The notes under the pieces: model-generated | What the model saw: the letters and a program-made list of their open reading frames with translations, nothing else | What the model was told of the DNA's origin: nothing | The model's database searches: none | From: a virus | Lineage: Duplodnaviria; Heunggongvirae; Uroviricota; Caudoviricetes | IMG/VR virus record: IMGVR_UViG_2548876947_000004 | DNA length: 64,000 nt | Direction: 5' to 3' (one strand) | Made by a program: the position numbers and the translations under genes | Shown here: piece by piece, positions 208 to 39,542 of the stretch | Numbering within the stretch: the first letter of the stretch is position 1 | How the letters are laid out: every line of letters starts with the position of its first letter

Positions 208-3200
208 AAGAGCTGTGCTATGGATCTGTTTGCAGTGGAATTGAAGCTGCGAGTATTGCTTGGGAACCTTTGGGTATGCGTCCGGCCTGGTTTGCTGAAA
301 TTGAGCCTTTTCCATCTGCCGTTCTTGCGCACCGTTGGCCTCATGTCGCCAATCTTGGCGACATGACAAAACTTGCCAAAAAAGTCCTGGCAGGGGAAAT
401 CGAATCCCCTGATGTGCTGGTGGGAGGGACACCATGTTTTGCCGCGGGCCATATGGTTCTTTGTAAAAATGGTTATAAACCAATAGAAGATGTTTGCCCA
501 GGCGATTACGTAGTCAGTCATCTCGGGCGGTTACAACAAGTAAAAAGAGTTGGTTCAAAAATAGCTAATACGGGGTTACTTAATGCCGTTGGGCAGCCTT
601 TAGGTATAAGAACAACCAATGACCATCCCTTCCTGGCGGTTCGGTGGAAAGCCCAAAACACCCGGAAAAATGGCACATATTTTAAGAGAGAGTTGTTGTC
701 TGAACCGGAATGGCGAGCAGCATGTGATATGCCGGGATATCAATGGTGTGCTCTAACTAATTTCAATATTGCATCTCCAGATATTTGTTCTCGGTTCTTG
801 TCTGAAGAACAGGCTATGTATCTTGCGGGCGCTTATGTTGGCGATGGATATATTAGGAGATGGAGAGGTAAATCTAAGAAGGCGGTTGTTTTTGGCATAA
901 ATTGCCAGAAATTGAGAAAGTTTCATTGCCGCATACCAGAAAACATATTTTCCGTGGCAAGCGAAATCCGAGGGAGCATCAAAGTAACCTTGAATGATAC
1001 GTGTTATGCCAATTGGCTTAATGAACATTTTGGCGAGTTAAGCCATGCTAAGCGTATCCCTGCATGGGTGATGTCGCATCCATTGCGTCATGTGTTTTTA
1101 CAAGGCTATCTTGATACTGATGGGACACCAAGTGGTAAAGCGGGATTTAGAATTAATAGTGTTAGTCCTGCGCTTGCTTGGGGCGTTGCGGAGTTGTCAC
1201 AGACTTGTGGTTATGTTTCTTCGGTCAGCTTTATTGAAGTTGAGCCCAAAAAAGTGATTGAGGATCGCGTGGTAAATCAACGGAATTATTATCAGGTAAC
1301 AATCTGCCCGCAGAAATTGTCACGTAAATCAAGATTGGCTCATGGAATGCTTTTACGAACAGTCAAAGAGTTTAAATCGGTAGGCCTAGATACTGTATAC
1401 AACATAGAAGTCGAAGGTGATCATTCCTATATCCTCAATGGTGCGGTGGTCCATAACTGTCAGGCATTCAGTATCGCTGGATTACGTGGTGGGCTTGATG
1501 ATGAGCGTGGCGCGCTAACTTTAAAGTATGTGGAGCTTGCAAATGCAATTGACGACAAACGGGCTGAGTCATTTCTCAAACCAGCCGTTATCGTCTGGGA
1601 AAATGTCCCAGGAGTCTTGTCATCGGCAGATAACGCCTTCGGATGTTTCCTTGCCGGATTGGCTGGAGAAGATGCGCCATTCGAACCAGGTGATCGACCT
1701 GAATCAGGAAAAAGTAACGCGTTCTGGCGGTGGGATGTCAAAACCGGTTGCCATGCTCCAAAGTGGCCGCAGTGTGGTTGTATTTATGGACCGCAGCGAA
1801 AAGTGGCCTGGAGAATCCTTGATGCCCAATACTTCGGAGTGGCACAACGACGCCGACGCGTGTTTGTTGTCGCAAGTGCTCGAACAGACCTCGATCCCGC
1901 AACGGTACTTTTTGAGTTCGAAGGCGTGCGCCGGAATATTGCGCCGAGCCGAAAAAAGAAGGAAATCGCTTCCGCCATTATTGCAAATGGCGCTGCAATC
2001 AGTGGCGAAAGCCTAAATCCATGCCTACACGCTGACATGCCACCCGGTATGAAATCGACGAAAGCCGTAAACGCTTTCAGGATGGCAGCATTTGGGGAAT
2101 ATATTGACGATGAAACCGCATCGACAGTAAAGGCAAGAGATTTTAAAAATGCCACTGATCTTGCCGTTTTTAGCAGCACAGGAGCAGGTTTTTGGTCAGA
2201 AGGGCATGGTACATTGCGGGCACGTGAGCAAGAAAGCCATGAGCATCTTGTTACATTGGCTTTTCCTGAGCGTATAAGCGGTACACAACATGCTGCAACT
2301 AAGAATACTTCACCATCTCTAATGGCTAAAAATCCAACAGCTGTTTGCTATGAAGTAAGAAACGCAGAAGTAGCTGTCCGCCGTCTTACCCCTGTCGAAT
2401 GTGAAAGGCTGCAAGGTTTTCCTGATGGGCATACGTTGATCCCTACGGAAAAGCGTAAAAAAGTTAATTCAGATGAACTGGCATATCTTCGCAATCACTA
2501 TCCAGATTTAAGCGAAGAAGAGGCCGCGATGCTTGCAGCTGACGGACCGCGTTACAAAGCGATCGGCAATAGTATGGCGATACCAGTAATGTGCTGGATT
2601 GGCGATCGGATTACTAAGGCCGTATGCCGGCAGAAAGAAGGAAGTGAAACAAAAGAGCGAAAAGTTAAACCAGCGGCAGAATTCGAACGGTCCATATTCA
2701 AATGGGCTGGTGGAAAATTTGGTGTTCTGGAACAAATCTTTCGCTATTTGCCAGAAGGGAAGCGCCTGATTGAACCTTTCGTTGGTGGCGGAGCTGTCTT
2801 CATGAATGCCGGATACCAGGAAAATCTGCTAAATGATGTGAATGCTGACCTGATTAACTTTTACAAGACTCTGCAACGCGAGGCGCATTCACTTATCACT
2901 CTGGCACATCGTTTCTTCCTGGACTACAACACCCAGGAGGGATTCCTGGCAGTACGGAATGCGTTTAACAAACAAGTCTATGATGATTTACATCGCGCAG
3001 CGGCGTTTTTGTTCCTGAACCGACATTGTTTTAATGGATTGACGCGCTACAACCAGGCCGGTGAGTTCAATGTCGGTTATGGGAAGTATAAAACTCCGTA
3101 TTTCCCATTACAGGAGATGGAAGCCTTCCTCGGTGCGGAAGGGCGGTCTGAGTTTGTATGCGGTGATTTTGCAGCAGTGATTGAAGCTGCCGGAGAAGGA

Positions 3201-3491
3201 GATGTCATCTTTTGCGATCCGCCGTATGAACCGCTCCCCAATACAGAGGGGTTCACGAACTATTCCGGTCATGACTTTAAGTTTGAAGAGCAAAAACGCC
3301 TGGTGTCTCTGTTGACGGATGCTCATCGCCGAGGTGCAAAGGTACTCATTACTAACAGTGGCGCGCCAAACATCAGAGAGCTTTATCAGGACAGTGGCTT
3401 CAGAGTGGAACCTCTCTTTGCCAGACGTTCTGTGTCTTGTAAGGGAGACACTCGTGGTGTTGCTCATGACGTTATGGCAATATTGCTCTAA
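204..3491 (+). CDS. dmt: Bifunctional DNA methyltransferase (N-terminal C5-cytosine MTase fused to C-terminal Dam-like N6-adenine MTase), interrupted by an intein
   Basis: C5-MTase motifs: GGTPC...QAFSIAG (PCQ split by intein), ENVPG, QRRRRVFVV, GNS. Dam-like motifs: KWAGGK, FVGGGAV, DPPY. GTG start. Extein parts sum to 754 aa. Confidence 0.9.
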   Translation: MKELCYGSVCSGIEAASIAWEPLGMRPAWFAEIEPFPSAVLAHRWPHVANLGDMTKLAKKVLAGEIESPDVLVGGTPCFAAGHMVLCKNGYKPIEDVCPGDYVVSHLGRLQQVKRVGSKIANTGLLNAVGQPLGIRTTNDHPFLAVRWKAQNTRKNGTYFKRELLSEPEWRAACDMPGYQWCALTNFNIASPDICSRFLSEEQAMYLAGAYVGDGYIRRWRGKSKKAVVFGINCQKLRKFHCRIPENIFSVASEIRGSIKVTLNDTCYANWLNEHFGELSHAKRIPAWVMSHPLRHVFLQGYLDTDGTPSGKAGFRINSVSPALAWGVAELSQTCGYVSSVSFIEVEPKKVIEDRVVNQRNYYQVTICPQKLSRKSRLAHGMLLRTVKEFKSVGLDTVYNIEVEGDHSYILNGAVVHNCQAFSIAGLRGGLDDERGALTLKYVELANAIDDKRAESFLKPAVIVWENVPGVLSSADNAFGCFLAGLAGEDAPFEPGDRPESGKSNAFWRWDVKTGCHAPKWPQCGCIYGPQRKVAWRILDAQYFGVAQRRRRVFVVASARTDLDPATVLFEFEGVRRNIAPSRKKKEIASAIIANGAAISGESLNPCLHADMPPGMKSTKAVNAFRMAAFGEYIDDETASTVKARDFKNATDLAVFSSTGAGFWSEGHGTLRAREQESHEHLVTLAFPERISGTQHAATKNTSPSLMAKNPTAVCYEVRNAEVAVRRLTPVECERLQGFPDGHTLIPTEKRKKVNSDELAYLRNHYPDLSEEEAAMLAADGPRYKAIGNSMAIPVMCWIGDRITKAVCRQKEGSETKERKVKPAAEFERSIFKWAGGKFGVLEQIFRYLPEGKRLIEPFVGGGAVFMNAGYQENLLNDVNADLINFYKTLQREAHSLITLAHRFFLDYNTQEGFLAVRNAFNKQVYDDLHRAAAFLFLNRHCFNGLTRYNQAGEFNVGYGKYKTPYFPLQEMEAFLGAEGRSEFVCGDFAAVIEAAGEGDVIFCDPPYEPLPNTEGFTNYSGHDFKFEEQKRLVSLLTDAHRRGAKVLITNSGAPNIRELYQDSGFRVEPLFARRSVSCKGDTRGVAHDVMAILL
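435..1457 (+). mobile_element. Intein (341 aa) with LAGLIDADG homing-endonuclease domain, in frame within dmt
   Basis: Starts CFAAGHMVL (Hint block A), TTNDHPF (block B), LAGLIDADG-type YLAGAYVGDGY and FLQGYLDTDGT, ends VVHN followed by +1 Cys; splicing would restore GGTP-CQAFS. Confidence 0.85.
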
Positions 3492-3509
3492 TAAATTTAT
3501 TAGTGTAAT
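3482..3509. promoter_or_regulatory. C1 repressor operator pair (overlapping inverted copies) spanning the dmt stop codon
   Basis: 3482-3498 ATTGCTCTAATAAATTT is 17/17 to the P1 C1 operator consensus; 3493-3509 is a 15/17 inverted copy. Confidence 0.7.
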
Positions 3510-3675
3510 ATCGCCTCAATGAATCGTGATTTATAGAGCGATTTAGCTGTTAGCCGCGACAGGCGCGGCGGCAAGTATGGCGGGGTAGTGACTCCTTCCC
3601 CCTCATGACGCCGAGTTGCCAGGTTGACCATACGCCTAAGTGGCAACACCGAAGTGCGTTACGAGCTTCCAGTTT

Positions 3676-3701
3676 GCCCATCTTCGGGTGGGCGTTTTTT
3701 T
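3676..3701 (+). terminator. Rho-independent terminator
   Basis: 7-bp GC-rich stem (GCCCATC/GGTGGGC) with TTCG loop followed by GTTTTTTT. Confidence 0.6.
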
Positions 3702-35147: not shown

Positions 35148-36179
35148 ATGTCCAATTTACTGACCGTACACCAAAATTTGCCTGCATTACCGGTCGATGC
35201 AACGAGTGATGAGGTTCGCAAGAACCTGATGGACATGTTCAGGGATCGCCAGGCGTTTTCTGAGCATACCTGGAAAATGCTTCTGTCCGTTTGCCGGTCG
35301 TGGGCGGCATGGTGCAAGTTGAATAACCGGAAGTGGTTTCCCGCAGAACCTGAAGATGTTCGCGATTATCTTCTATATCTTCAGGCGCGCGGTCTGGCAG
35401 TGAAAACTATCCAGCAACATTTGGGCCAGCTAAACATGCTTCATCGTCGGTCCGGGCTGCCACGACCAAGTGACAGCAATGCTGTTTCACTGGTCATGCG
35501 GCGGATCCGAAAAGAAAACGTTGATGCCGGTGAACGTGCAAAACAGGCGCTGGCGTTCGAACGCACTGATTTCGACCTGGTTCGTTCACTCATGGAAAAT
35601 AGCGATCGCTGCCAGGATATACGTAATCTAGCATTTCTGGGGATTGCTTATAACACCCTGTTACGTATAGCCGAAATTGCCAGGATCAGGGTTAAAGATA
35701 TCTCACGTACTGACGGTGGGAGAATGTTAATCCATATTGGCAGAACGAAAACGCTGGTTAGCACCGCAGGTGTAGAGAAGGCACTTAGCCTGGGGGTAAC
35801 TAAACTGGTCGAGCGATGGATTTCTGTCTCTGGTGTGGCTGATGATCCGAATAACTACTTGTTTTGCCGTGTCAGAAAAAATGGTGTTGCCGCGCCATCT
35901 GCCACCAGCCAGCTATCAACTCGCGCCCTGGAAGGGATTTTTGAAGCAACTCATCGATTGATTTACGGCGCTAAGGATGACTCTGGTCAGAGATACCTGG
36001 CCTGGTCTGGACACAGTGCCCGTGTCGGAGCCGCGCGAGATATGGCCCGCGCCGGAGTTTCAATACCGGAGATCATGCAAGCTGGTGGCTGGACCAACGT
36101 AAATATTGTCATGAACTATATCCGTAACCTGGATAGTGAAACGGGGGCAATGGTGCGCCTGCTGGAAGATGGCGATTAG
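35148..36179 (+). CDS. cre: Cre tyrosine recombinase
   Basis: 343 aa beginning MSNLLTVHQNLPALPVD; matches Cre as recalled; loxP lies about 400 bp upstream. Confidence 0.97.
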   Translation: MSNLLTVHQNLPALPVDATSDEVRKNLMDMFRDRQAFSEHTWKMLLSVCRSWAAWCKLNNRKWFPAEPEDVRDYLLYLQARGLAVKTIQQHLGQLNMLHRRSGLPRPSDSNAVSLVMRRIRKENVDAGERAKQALAFERTDFDLVRSLMENSDRCQDIRNLAFLGIAYNTLLRIAEIARIRVKDISRTDGGRMLIHIGRTKTLVSTAGVEKALSLGVTKLVERWISVSGVADDPNNYLFCRVRKNGVAAPSATSQLSTRALEGIFEATHRLIYGAKDDSGQRYLAWSGHSARVGAARDMARAGVSIPEIMQAGGWTNVNIVMNYIRNLDSETGAMVRLLEDGD

Positions 36180-36196: not shown

Positions 36197-36213
36197 ATTG
36201 CTCTAATTATTTG
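36197..36213 (+). promoter_or_regulatory. C1 operator-like site
   Basis: ATTGCTCTAATTATTTG, 14/17. Confidence 0.45.
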
Positions 36214-36229
36214 ATATTTATGGTGACGC

Positions 36230-36541
36230 ATGCGGAAGGATTTCAAAATAGACGGAAAATATGTGGTGCTGTCTGTAAGCTCTCAAATTCAGTCACCATC
36301 TGTCATTGTCACCGTAAAGTTGAGCGATAGGATACCTGATATCGACTCGATATCTGTTGCGTTCCCCGTTAAAAGCATGCGGAGTGCTGAACATTTTGTG
36401 ATGAATGCAACGGAGGAGGAAGCGCGGCGCGGGCTTACTAGAGTGATGGTGGAATTTGGCGAACTCCTGGGTAAGGTAAACAATGCCCTTTCAATCAGTT
36501 CAGCAAGATCCAAAGCGTTAACAGCTTCCATGATGAAATAA
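36230..36541 (+). CDS. Hypothetical protein at the position of cra (cre-associated)
   Basis: 103-aa ORF between cre and ref; assigned by position. Confidence 0.5.
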   Translation: MRKDFKIDGKYVVLSVSSQIQSPSVIVTVKLSDRIPDIDSISVAFPVKSMRSAEHFVMNATEEEARRGLTRVMVEFGELLGKVNNALSISSARSKALTASMMK

Positions 36542-36672
36542 AAAAAGCCTGGCAAGGAGCCAGGCTGCACAAAAGAGCGGGTTTGTATTCCGCATCCAAT
36601 CAATCAAGAAGGAGTATAGCACACAGGTACTGAAGTGAAAAAATGTGATTCGCGATTAACAAAATATCTACC

Positions 36673-36696
36673 ATTGCTCTAATTGATTGCTATAAT
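36673..36696 (+). promoter_or_regulatory. C1 operator overlapping a TATAAT -10 element (ref promoter)
   Basis: ATTGCTCTAATTGATTG (14/17) at 36673-36689, immediately followed by TATAAT at 36691-36696. Confidence 0.6.
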
Positions 36697-36756
36697 TAAG
36701 CCGCATTTTTTGTCAACTACGAAGACGTTGCCATTACTTAACTCCTTGACATCATT

Positions 36757-36782
36757 GGCGGCCATTAGGCCGCCTTTTTTTT
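36757..36782 (+). terminator. Terminator-like hairpin plus T8 in the ref 5' leader
   Basis: GGCGGCC-ATTA-GGCCGCC followed by TTTTTTTT, ending 5 nt before the ref ATG. Confidence 0.5.
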
Positions 36783-36787
36783 GCCAT

Positions 36788-37348
36788 ATGAAAACAATCG
36801 AACAAAAACTTGAACAGCGCCGCGAGTGGCAGAAGGCAGCCAGAGAACGAGCGATCGCTCGGCAACGGGAAAAGTTGGCTGACCCCGCCTGGCGAGAATC
36901 GCAATATCAGAAAATGCGGGATTCTATCGACCGCCGTATCGCTAAACAGAAAGAGCGCCCACCAGCCAGCAAAACGCGGAAAAGTGCGGTAAAGATAAAA
37001 TCTCGTGGCTTGAAGGGGCGAACACCGACGGCGGAGGAACGGAGCATCGCCAATGCTCTTGGTGCTCTCCCCTGCATTGCCTGCTACATGCATGGAGTAA
37101 TATCTGAAGAGGTGTCTCTGCACCATATCTCCGGTCGTACCGCGCCGGGTTGTCACAAAAAGCAATTGCCCCTTTGTAGATGGCACCACCAGCATGCAGC
37201 ACCGGCTGAAGTAAGAGAAAAATACCCCTGGCTGGGCCCTGTTCATGCCGATGGTGTGGTTGGAGGCAAGAAAGAGTTCACCTTGCTGAACAAGTCAGAG
37301 ATGGAGTTGCTGGCTGACGCCTATGAAATGGCAAACATCATGCACTAA
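36788..37348 (+). CDS. ref: Recombination enhancement function Ref (HNH-type endonuclease)
   Basis: 186 aa from MKTIEQKLEQ; HNH-like CxxC...RWHHQH core; ORF-track start at 36683 rejected. Confidence 0.88.
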   Translation: MKTIEQKLEQRREWQKAARERAIARQREKLADPAWRESQYQKMRDSIDRRIAKQKERPPASKTRKSAVKIKSRGLKGRTPTAEERSIANALGALPCIACYMHGVISEEVSLHHISGRTAPGCHKKQLPLCRWHHQHAAPAEVREKYPWLGPVHADGVVGGKKEFTLLNKSEMELLADAYEMANIMH

Positions 37349-37355
37349 TAAATAT
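37339..37355 (+). promoter_or_regulatory. Weak C1 operator-like site
   Basis: CATGCACTAATAAATAT, 13/17, overlapping the ref stop. Confidence 0.3.
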
Positions 37356-37536
37356 ATTATTTTTAATCTTAAATGATTGACAACTGACAAGTGACTTGAG
37401 TCAGAATCATCACACGCCCGGTACGGATGGATCCCTTTTCAAATATTCCATGGACGGCACCGTCTGAGTACCGGGCGCTACCTTCAGTTGTATTGCTAAG
37501 CCGCCGCTGGTGGCTTTTCTTTTTTGTAGGGGCGCT

Positions 37537-38178
37537 ATGGATAAGAAAATATGCGTTGTTTCAATGAGCGTCGGCAAACCGGCGTCAATGACTGCTGCAT
37601 GGATCAACAATGAGCTGATAATGGCTGAGCGGACCAGCTACCCTGAACGCCGCCGCGATATGGAACTCCAGCTGCTGCGCGAATTGCGAGAAAAAGAGGA
37701 AAAGGGTTTTATCGTGCTGGTGGAAGAGGAAAACAGCTTTATTACCGGTCGAGTTGGCCAGCGTGTAAGGTTGCGCGATCCCTTCATGAAGGGCAGGCCG
37801 GTACTAATTGAAGCAATGCAGATTTACAAGGAGCTGGAACGCCAGAAAGCGATCAAGTTACCGCGCAAAGAATCCGGCAAATACATCCTCCACCAAAGCA
37901 TCTTCGATTCCGAACACGACAAAAAAGGCGATGAATTTTTCAACATCAACTGGAGCGAAATAACGACAGAGCACGTTCTGACGTTGTTATGCTGCTTCGC
38001 AACGGAATATAACAACGTTGCAAGCGCCGACTACATTAGGGCAATGGCAGGAGAAGTTGATGCCCGCCAGGAATCATCGTTACTAAGCCCTCTGATTAAC
38101 ATAATTCGCGGAACCCAAACACTGGCACAAAAACGGGTGCCTAAAGGGGAGTTAACTGGAAAAGGAAATTATCTATAA
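37537..38178 (+). CDS. Hypothetical protein at the position of mat (particle maturation)
   Basis: ATG 37537 after GTAGGGG SD, in frame with ORF 37510-38178; no domain recognised. Confidence 0.5.
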   Translation: MDKKICVVSMSVGKPASMTAAWINNELIMAERTSYPERRRDMELQLLRELREKEEKGFIVLVEEENSFITGRVGQRVRLRDPFMKGRPVLIEAMQIYKELERQKAIKLPRKESGKYILHQSIFDSEHDKKGDEFFNINWSEITTEHVLTLLCCFATEYNNVASADYIRAMAGEVDARQESSLLSPLINIIRGTQTLAQKRVPKGELTGKGNYL

Positions 38179-38234: not shown

Positions 38235-39542
38235 ATGAGCGAATATGTTGAGTTAGCATACGCTGCCGCTACAAGCAGGCTTTGTCTATTTACCGGGACT
38301 GGCTTTTCAAAGGCAGTCTCGAACGGTGAAGCTCCAACGTGGAAGGAACTATTAAAAAAAGTTTGCAGCAAAGTTCACAATGCCAAACAGTTGGAAGACA
38401 CGTTATTCCCTGATGATAAACCACCAGCACTGAGTCTTGAAGAAGCCGCACAAATACTATCTTTGAAGCTCAATATTGAGGGTAATTCGATTTATGATGA
38501 AATTGTTGACATCATATCTCCAATTCAACTTGGAGAAGACATATCAAATATAAAAGACTTTTTCCAAAAAAACTCATTCCGTATCATTACAACAAATTAT
38601 GACAAGTTGGCTGAATGCTTGGTTGGAGATGAAAGTGTACAGTCTATCACGCCCGGTCTGCCAATTCCAAAGTATCCATCCAAGGTGAAAATATATCATG
38701 TTCATGGTTCTATTGATTCGCCAAAAAATATGATTGTCACTTCAGATGATTACTTCAGATTTATAAATTCCGATACTTATTTTTCACGAAAACTTAGTAC
38801 GATGCTGCATGAAAATACAGTTGCGATATTAGGGTATTCTTTAAGCGACACAAATCTTAAAGCAATTATAAATGACTATAAAAAATTTTCGAAAAATAAT
38901 GCCCTGTGCTCTAATATCTTTTTGATATCTCGCAACAAAGTAAGTCAAGATATGAAGGATTATTACTTCTATTGCTTTGGTATAAGGGTAATTGACAATA
39001 CAGAAATAGATTGTTTCTTTAGTCGATTAAGTTATAAGATGTCTCTCATTAAAGACATCATTGAAAGAGCGCGTGAAAATATCAGAAAAGTTGTTTCAGG
39101 GGCTTATACTTATAAAGATGAATATCTTGAATTAGAGGACTCATTTTATCAAATTATATCATCAATTATATCGGAAGGTTTAGATTGGAATGATGATAAA
39201 GTCGTTTCTCTTTTCGAAAGGATAATAGAAAAAAAGCGAAAGTTAACCAGGAATGACGGAGCCTGGGAGCAATATGAACAGTTGGCAAAATGGCTTATAT
39301 ATTTTGGAAGCATCATAGAGGTTAGCAATACTAAGTATGAAAAAACATATTTAGACGCAGTTGAATTCTCGATGGGTCATATGAGTAAAGAAAGGACTTG
39401 GGGAGTTTCTTGGTATGCTTACAGAGCTTGGGAAACACGGTGGCCTGCAATAATTGCCTCAAATAGATTAATGATAAAAAACCACATTGAAACATTAGGC
39501 ACCTTGAAGGACGCCAACCTTATAGTTAAGAATATAGTGTAA
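38235..39542 (+). CDS. SIR2-family (sirtuin-like) protein with an uncharacterised helical C-terminal domain; candidate NAD-depleting defence effector
   Basis: LFTGTGFS (aa 18-25), TTNYD (119-123), HVHGS (155-159); GGAG SD; AT-rich relative to the backbone; strong terminator downstream. Confidence 0.8.
   Translation: MSEYVELAYAAATSRLCLFTGTGFSKAVSNGEAPTWKELLKKVCSKVHNAKQLEDTLFPDDKPPALSLEEAAQILSLKLNIEGNSIYDEIVDIISPIQLGEDISNIKDFFQKNSFRIITTNYDKLAECLVGDESVQSITPGLPIPKYPSKVKIYHVHGSIDSPKNMIVTSDDYFRFINSDTYFSRKLSTMLHENTVAILGYSLSDTNLKAIINDYKKFSKNNALCSNIFLISRNKVSQDMKDYYFYCFGIRVIDNTEIDCFFSRLSYKMSLIKDIIERARENIRKVVSGAYTYKDEYLELEDSFYQIISSIISEGLDWNDDKVVSLFERIIEKKRKLTRNDGAWEQYEQLAKWLIYFGSIIEVSNTKYEKTYLDAVEFSMGHMSKERTWGVSWYAYRAWETRWPAIIASNRLMIKNHIETLGTLKDANLIVKNIV

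Follow-up and report, generated by a model that had tools for sequence, protein, structure and literature searches.

Sequence evidence strongly supports a Rho-independent terminator in the C1-controlled ref leader of a P1-like phage

The 64,000-nucleotide stretch of viral DNA analysed here (IMG/VR record IMGVR_UViG_2548876947_000004, hereafter the window) is, judging by its sequence, a P1-like phage or plasmid-prophage. The element under study lies in the 5' leader of the ref gene, where a G/C hairpin followed by eight T residues (T8) stands between a promoter controlled by the C1 repressor and the start codon. Over the c8-ref region (36200-37400), the window matches Escherichia phages JL22 and RCS47 with 98.8% identity and phage P1 with 93.4%. 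Coordinates of the P1 record AF234172 were converted to window coordinates by adding 34711, with the ref ATG (2077 = 36788) as anchor. The Ref protein of the window is 97% identical to a 'Ref family protein' (PF16786). The following features make up the ref control region, where nt is nucleotides, aa is amino acids and SD is a Shine-Dalgarno sequence.

36668-36673, + strand: -35 hexamer of promoter P2ref, CTACCA (1957-1962 in P1 AF234172, annotated as minus_35_signal)
36673-36689, + strand: C1 repressor operator Oref, ATTGCTCTAATTGATTG, identical to the annotated P1 Oref (1962-1978)
36691-36696, + strand: -10 hexamer of P2ref, TATAAT (1980-1985 in P1)
36703-36756, + strand: 5' leader before the hairpin, about 54 nt, without AUG and without SD
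36728-36755, + strand: P1ref, a second predicted sigma-70 promoter, TTGCCA-16-TGaCATCAT (promoter scan 9/12 with TG)
36757-36774, + strand: terminator hairpin GGCGGCC-ATTA-GGCCGCC, 5' arm 36757-36763, 3' arm 36768-36774
36775-36782, + strand: T8 tract, the U-tail of the terminator, followed by GCCAT and then the ref ATG at 36788
36788-37348, + strand: ref, 186 aa, RecA-dependent HNH nuclease, ATG start without SD

The first-pass annotation of the window had described an operator abutting a perfect TATAAT, and a 7-bp GC stem with T8 ending 5 nt before the ref ATG. Both were found on direct reading at the coordinates above, the former being the annotated Oref and P2ref of P1 and the latter also being recovered by a terminator scan. 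Oref (ATTGCTCTAATTGATTG) has 3 mismatches to the C1 consensus ATTGCTCTAATAAATTT, and its position is equivalent to that of the annotated Op(ref) of P7. At this level of 3 mismatches, 14 C1-consensus-like sites were observed in the window against 0.38 expected. From the position of the -10 hexamer, transcription from P2ref is predicted to start at approximately 36702-36705.

Relative to the P2ref -10 the hairpin is 61 nt downstream, and relative to the ATG it is 14 nt upstream. All seven pairs of its stem are G-C and its loop has 4 nt. The predicted folding energy is -16.2 kcal/mol (z = -4.0), and none of 200 shuffled sequences was equally stable. A strict scan for terminators (perfect stem of 7 bp or more, of which 6 or more are G/C, and 7 or more T) returned 4 distinct sites on both strands of the window, compared with a mean of 0.01 in 100 dinucleotide shuffles, a number too low for the hairpin to have arisen by chance. 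The U-tract is one-sided, i.e. T8 follows the stem directly on the + strand, whereas the sequence after the hairpin on the - strand is AATGATGT. A minus-strand terminator and a DNA-binding palindrome were both considered and rejected, as the T-run is confined to one side, no T-run is present on the - strand, and the stem sequence is swapped between clades while pairing is kept.

Conservation was evaluated on two sets of relatives. The first set consisted of 78 parsed P1-type loci with Ref proteins 93-99% identical. The stem is perfect in 73 of these, while the closing pairs are weakened by GGCCGCT in four loci and by GGCCGTT in one. The loop reads ATTA or ATCA, the T-run has a length of 7-10, and the spacer to the start codon is GCCAT or GACCAT. 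Three further P1-type loci (L042, L046, L061) have the loop TAAA, the spacer ACCTT and an altered leader. In phage P1 itself the hairpin GGCGGCCATTAGGCCGCC and T8 are identical to those of the window; the element follows the annotated Oref and P2ref and ends 5 nt short of the ref ATG. The leaders of P1 and the window differ by three substitutions (36699, 36706 and 36740). Among 67 distinct P1-type sequences the diversity of the leader is 0.03-0.04, against 0.066 at third codon positions of ref.

The second set consisted of divergent P1-like lineages that still carry a C1-type operator abutting a -10 hexamer, with Salmonella, Klebsiella and Pantoea as hosts. Although Ref is only 60-66% identical and the stems are different, the order of operator, promoter, leader, hairpin with T-run and ref is kept in the loci below.

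L085 and L086: Ref about 65%, GACGGTC-TTCG-GACCGTC, T8
L087: Ref about 65%, GACGGTC-TTCG-GGCCGTC (a U-G intermediate), T8
L314 (Klebsiella aerogenes): Ref 66%, GACGGTC-TACG-GACCGTC, T7
L254 (Pantoea alvi type): Ref 60%, GCCGCC-TCCG-GGCGGC, T7

In the alignment of the stems 98.4% of the cells are paired and three of the seven pairs are changed on both sides, whereas slid registers of the same alignment pair at 17-70%. The covariation score was 0.389 compared with 0.222 in shuffles, and none of 500 shuffles reached 0.389; the alignment holds nine distinct sequences from only about four lineages. Every relative with the hairpin has a T-run of T7-T10. The covariation of the stem and the kept order of parts support a functional Rho-independent terminator in the ref leader. 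Together, the G/C stem with its short loop, the one-sided U-tract and the compensatory stem changes have the form of such a terminator, and we regard it as strongly supported, on sequence grounds, that the ref 5' leader contains a true Rho-independent terminator, formed by the hairpin and T8.

The hairpin was not found at Ref homologues outside the C1-operator context, whose upstream regions are ordinary. These comprised a 171-aa clade (35-45-kb prophages), a 215-aa clade, and clades from E. coli, Enterobacter and Klebsiella plasmids with other palindromic operators. The element is therefore a property of the P1-type regulatory region rather than of the ref gene itself.

The genes upstream of ref bear on what the terminator may do.

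35148-36179, + strand: Cre open reading frame (ORF)
36230-36541, + strand: C8 ORF
36546-36566, - strand: neighbouring terminator, AGCCTGGC-TCCTT-GCCAGGCT and T7, directly after the c8 stop

Because the hairpin at 36546-36566 has no T-run on the + strand, cre-c8 transcripts would not be stopped there, and the terminator scan of the window returned no other + strand terminator-like site between cre and ref. The hairpin in the ref leader is thus the first + strand terminator downstream of cre-c8, a point overlooked in the first-pass annotation, and would also end the upstream transcription unit. The arrangement recurs among the divergent loci: in L086 the upstream co-oriented ORFs run up to the operator and no other + strand terminator-like site was found between them and ref, in L254 the upstream co-oriented ORF has its end within the operator, again without a further + strand terminator ahead of ref, and in L314 the upstream genes are co-oriented and the gap is just 104 nt.

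On balance, we think that the leader terminator is probably a leaky attenuator which also insulates ref, with the U-tract probably aiding initiation at a start codon that has no SD. Transcripts from P2ref (repressed by C1 and Bof/Lxc) would meet the terminator after approximately 80 nt, and only the fraction reading through would become ref messenger RNA (mRNA). Termination efficiency is presumably incomplete, and a leaky attenuator of this kind would hold down the level of a toxic RecA-dependent nuclease even in the absence of C1 repression. In a lysogen the terminator would shield ref from upstream (cre-c8) transcription. In the read-through mRNA, the folded hairpin would leave U8 and the A-rich coding start single-stranded, which probably replaces the missing SD. 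Inactivation of C1 has been reported to raise ref mRNA 73-fold (PMC4713147), so read-through must occur.

Several points weigh against this interpretation. The same 73-fold induction means that the terminator is far from absolute, or that it is antiterminated in lytic growth. For a pure insulator, a simpler design would do without a promoter upstream of the terminator. The predicted promoter P1ref, if active, would bypass the hairpin: its start would lie at approximately 36761-36763, inside the 5' arm, and its transcripts would therefore escape termination. Finally, one locus with an operator-like site and Ref 66% identical (L313) has a short leader without hairpin, and a Pantoea clade with a 222-aa Ref has an AT-rich palindrome instead of the G/C hairpin; the element is accordingly dispensable in some lineages.

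L313 is contig k119_34966 of ENA (100-1161), with the operator-like sequence AATTACTCTAATTTATA and a Tad2-like (anti-Thoeris) gene after the Ref homologue. In the 222-aa clade (L234-L250, Pantoea-type contigs of about 90 kb) the palindrome is perfect and conserved, reads (A)ATCTAAAAAATATTTTAGAT(T), and lies about 10-35 nt upstream of ref. It stands about 10 nt before an SD-less ATG and downstream of a C1-like site, ATTGCTTTACAG..., and may serve either as an operator for a protein or as a weak RNA hairpin.

P1ref is annotated in the P1 record as 'predicted sigma 70 promoter P1ref' at 2017-2044, which corresponds to 36728-36755 in the window. The C1-controlled promoter of the first-pass annotation thus stands, but this second annotated promoter had been overlooked. 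P1ref is not kept in the divergent clades, and it is altered in L042, L046 and L061. Another candidate promoter, starting from a perfect TTGACA at 36746-36751, was rejected since the sequence 16-18 bp further is GCCGCC and not a -10.

Two variations upstream of the leader were also seen. In two P1-type loci from IMG/VR, with an identical upstream sequence of 201 nt, Oref and the P2ref -35 are replaced by a sequence ending in ...CTTAGCGTGCTTTATTTTCCGTTTTCTGAGACGACCCC, which we take to be the terminal inverted repeat of Tn21-family transposons. This insertion would remove C1 control of ref while sparing the -10, the leader and the terminator. At 36652-36658 the window reads CGATTAA; in P1, the H-NS nucleation motif described for the region upstream of ref is CGATAAA (PMC4713147). 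Both forms are frequent among the relatives.

A regulated leader attenuator of the trp, pyrBI, T-box or riboswitch type would have a sensor and a mutually exclusive antiterminator helix as well as a terminator. The terminator lies in the 5' leader downstream of the promoter. The leader (36703-36756) contains no AUG, GUG or SD and hence encodes no leader peptide, and no ligand- or tRNA-binding domain was found in it. A scan against Rfam in E-value mode gave no family at threshold, with best matches of 17-25 bits against gathering scores of 41-75. The matches to rseX (24.6 bits, gathering score 50) and suhB (22.4 bits, gathering score 41) were rejected as sub-threshold and driven by the terminator. 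The fold of the leader body is weak (-4.6 kcal/mol, z = -0.5); the body is little conserved between clades, and it is just 26-45 nt long in L254 and L314. A conserved, mutually exclusive antiterminator helix was not found across the window, P1, L085-L087, L314, L254 and L042/L046/L061. The word 'attenuator' used in the first-pass annotation hence holds for a canonical, non-random and covarying leader terminator between the C1 promoter and ref, and does not extend to regulated termination, for which neither leader peptide, Rfam family nor conserved antiterminator helix was found.

An in-frame ORF that starts at a TTG (36683) and runs through the hairpin could suggest an N-terminally extended Ref. 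This was rejected, as indels break the frame in relatives (T-run length of 7-10, spacer GCCAT or GACCAT, and a leader deletion of 1 nt). With the extended reading all three leader differences between P1 and the window would be non-synonymous, and the MKT... N-terminus is kept in clades with an ordinary SD (as MKT.E.KL in relatives whose ref has an SD).

The idea of an attenuator in the P1 ref leader is already known. Windle, Laufer and Hays (J Bacteriol 170:4881, 1988; GenBank M23246) announce in their title 'attenuator-antiterminator control' of P1 ref, and the element of the window is the same one, with identical hairpin and T8. The second regulatory layer that the first-pass annotation proposed for ref is therefore a rediscovery, going by that 1988 title, and not new. 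The window differs from P1 in that one of the three substitutions weakens its 5' leader helix, from -14.9 kcal/mol in P1 to -10.4 kcal/mol. The P1 record AF234172 lists promoters and operator over this stretch and no terminator feature. With Rho-independent terminators and the trp and pyrBI attenuators the ref leader shares a G/C stem, a short loop and a U-tract placed in a 5' leader between promoter and start; it differs from trp and pyrBI in lacking a leader peptide, a coupled-translation signal and a conserved set of antiterminator and anti-antiterminator.

The alternative that survives best is an efficient default terminator, with a trans-acting phage antiterminator of the lytic cycle letting RNA polymerase into ref and perhaps mat. 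We take this to be the 1988 Windle model, as far as its title tells, and consider it possible but unlikely. That title speaks for it, and so does a 2023 paper (PMC10695390) which sees no direct evidence for a P1 antitermination protein but, with reference to Lobocka 2004 and Windle 1988, 'strong indications'. The 73-fold rise of ref mRNA in lytic growth (PMC4713147) would also fit, although derepression of P2ref alone could account for it. Conservation of the leader exceeds that of synonymous sites, and two clades have a CTGTCAAC-like motif in common, yet the leaders of L314 and L254 share little with P1. The adjacent mat gene, controlled by C1 and Lpa, has a leader hairpin with T-run as well (37498-37526), and a similar one is found in L254. 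Neither a candidate factor nor a recognisable nut/put/qut-like element was found.

The terminator-like hairpin of the mat leader reads AAGCCGCC-GCT-GGTGGCTT, followed by TTCTTTTTT. The annotated Pmat/LPmat promoters are upstream of it, and an ATG at 37539 (MDKKICVV...) is downstream. Immediately 3' of the hairpin is a polymorphic G-tract, with G4 in the window and 34 loci and G5 in P1 (L001 2716-2830) and 24 other loci. The annotated mat start of P1 (37427 in the window) is in frame only with G5, and the real Mat start is therefore probably 37539; mat would then probably share promoter, leader terminator and start layout with ref. The related hairpin and T-run of the Pantoea alvi-type locus L254 are at 3075-3098. 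Among the other 13 C1-operator-like sites of the window, a terminator nearby downstream was seen only at immI (3482, then 3675) and at the 3' end of pacB (31448, then 31595). This survey of the 13 sites showed no general pattern of operator followed by terminator beyond ref, mat and immI.

It is very unlikely that the element is mainly a translation signal, in which U8 beside a stable hairpin uses S1 to bring the 30S subunit to a start without SD, termination being a by-product. The E. coli rnd (RNase D) leader is the comparable case, with a hairpin and U-run shortly upstream of a poorly signalled start. In the rnd leader the hairpin is reportedly followed by eight U (Zhang and Deutscher 1992), and rnd has an SD and a UUG start. 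The ref leader differs from it in that the stem covaries and the distance from T-run to start is not conserved. A signal of this kind would agree with U8 ending 5 nt from the AUG, with an A-rich and unpaired coding start, and with the start codon itself, for which the best anti-SD duplex in positions -22 to -3 has only -2.4 kcal/mol. The first-pass annotation was right that no SD is recognisable, though this is unremarkable in the window, where cre (-2.5 kcal/mol), c8 (-2.8 kcal/mol) and 28% of the long ORFs have equally weak SDs.

A U-rich tract stands near the SD-less start in the P1 type (T-run 5-6 nt from the start) and in the Salmonella/Klebsiella clade of L085-L087 and L314 (10-17 nt), but not in L254, where about 95 nt lie between the hairpin with T7 and the homologous start codon, which is fixed by N-terminal homology. 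This lack of conservation weakens the translation-control reading, and with it the earlier suggestion of an RNA element controlling translation initiation. Moreover, a U-tract alone needs no conserved, covarying G/C stem. By analogy it nevertheless stays plausible that U8 serves secondarily as a U-rich landing site for ribosomes in the read-through mRNA, as U-rich tracts bind 30S subunits and enhance translation, for example in rnd mRNA (PMC5934652, PMC7769764).

A small-RNA gene formed by P2ref and the terminator (an approximately 80-nt C1-controlled RNA, with ref expressed via read-through or P1ref) is hardly probable. The discrete promoter, the predicted 80-nt transcript, the G/C hairpin end and the U8 tail as in Hfq-binding small RNAs are necessary features and far from sufficient, and the constraint on the leader relative to synonymous sites is consistent with such a gene. 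The weak fold of the leader body, its poor conservation and shortness in L254 and L314, and the empty Rfam result argue otherwise. The model for it would be the c4 RNA before icd-ant. The immI operon of P1 (Op51, c4 antisense RNA, icd-ant) resembles the ref region in having a C1 operator and promoter, a short RNA, a hairpin with T7 and then genes reached by read-through, and this order is seen at 3482-3700 of the window, which we take to be the c4 region. It differs in that c4 is a processed antisense RNA with defined targets, whereas the ref leader RNA has no known function. The translational and the small-RNA explanations are minor alternatives, compatible with a leaky, insulating attenuator and not mutually exclusive with it.

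A self-contained, signal-dependent RNA switch is likewise hardly probable: although GUUGCCA (36726-36732) can pair with UGGCGGC (36756-36762) of the terminator 5' arm as long as the 3' arm has not been transcribed (-10.4 kcal/mol in the window, -14.9 in P1), and ACUGUC(A) with (U)GACGGU in L085-L087 (the arm of L085 and L087 being sequestered as fully in just about 4% of shuffled leaders), the arm of the window and P1 is sequestered equally well in 27-30% of shuffled leaders, the pairing is absent in L314 and L254 and destroyed in L042/L046/L061 (GTTGCCA changed to ATGGCCA, 3 arm nt paired, matched by 87% of shuffles), and there is neither a leader peptide nor an Rfam family at threshold.

Several further observations were made in the neighbourhood. 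On the - strand of the c8-ref spacer (36539-36641) a candidate small RNA is predicted, with the promoter-like sequence TTTTCA-17-TGcTATACT (36641..36613) and the strong terminator at 36566..36546 with T7. Its predicted length is about 65-70 nt and its fold has -23.2 kcal/mol (z = -3.2). The diversity of the c8-ref spacer is 0.02-0.03 compared with 0.066 at ref synonymous sites. The candidate has no annotation in the P1 record, and its only Rfam match is sub-threshold (SorX, 22.6 bits).

Between cre and c8, at 36197-36213, the window has the C1-operator-like sequence ATTGCTCTAATTATTTG with 3 mismatches to the consensus. P1 has ATTGCTATAATTATTTG at this place and no annotated operator, the site of the window being the better match, and c8 might be under C1 control in the phage of the window. 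Further downstream, at 38235-39542, the window has a 435-aa + strand ORF where P1 has res/mod (EcoPI) downstream of mat. This ORF is unrelated to P1 res in position and orientation, and the region looks like a locus of variable cargo or defence genes.

Ref harms the host and lowers lysogenisation (PMC4713147), so tight control of the gene in several layers makes biological sense. To the attenuator published in 1988 the present analysis adds comparative support, in that P1-like phages of Salmonella, Klebsiella and Pantoea keep the hairpin and T-run through compensatory changes, and two negatives: no leader peptide in the leader and no conserved RNA antiterminator across the loci compared. Comparative support and negatives together narrow the question to passive leakiness versus a trans-acting factor. 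The result is useful for annotation and for engineering of ref expression, and is not a discovery. More speculatively, and in our judgement distinctly unlikely, leader terminators in the P1 family would follow the C1 promoters of ref and of at least one neighbour, mat, and be read through by means of a phage antitermination factor, or else the 80-nt leader would be a C1-controlled regulatory RNA. If leader terminators at ref and mat are indeed used in this way, the ref leader would be a handle for finding the long-suspected antiterminator of P1.

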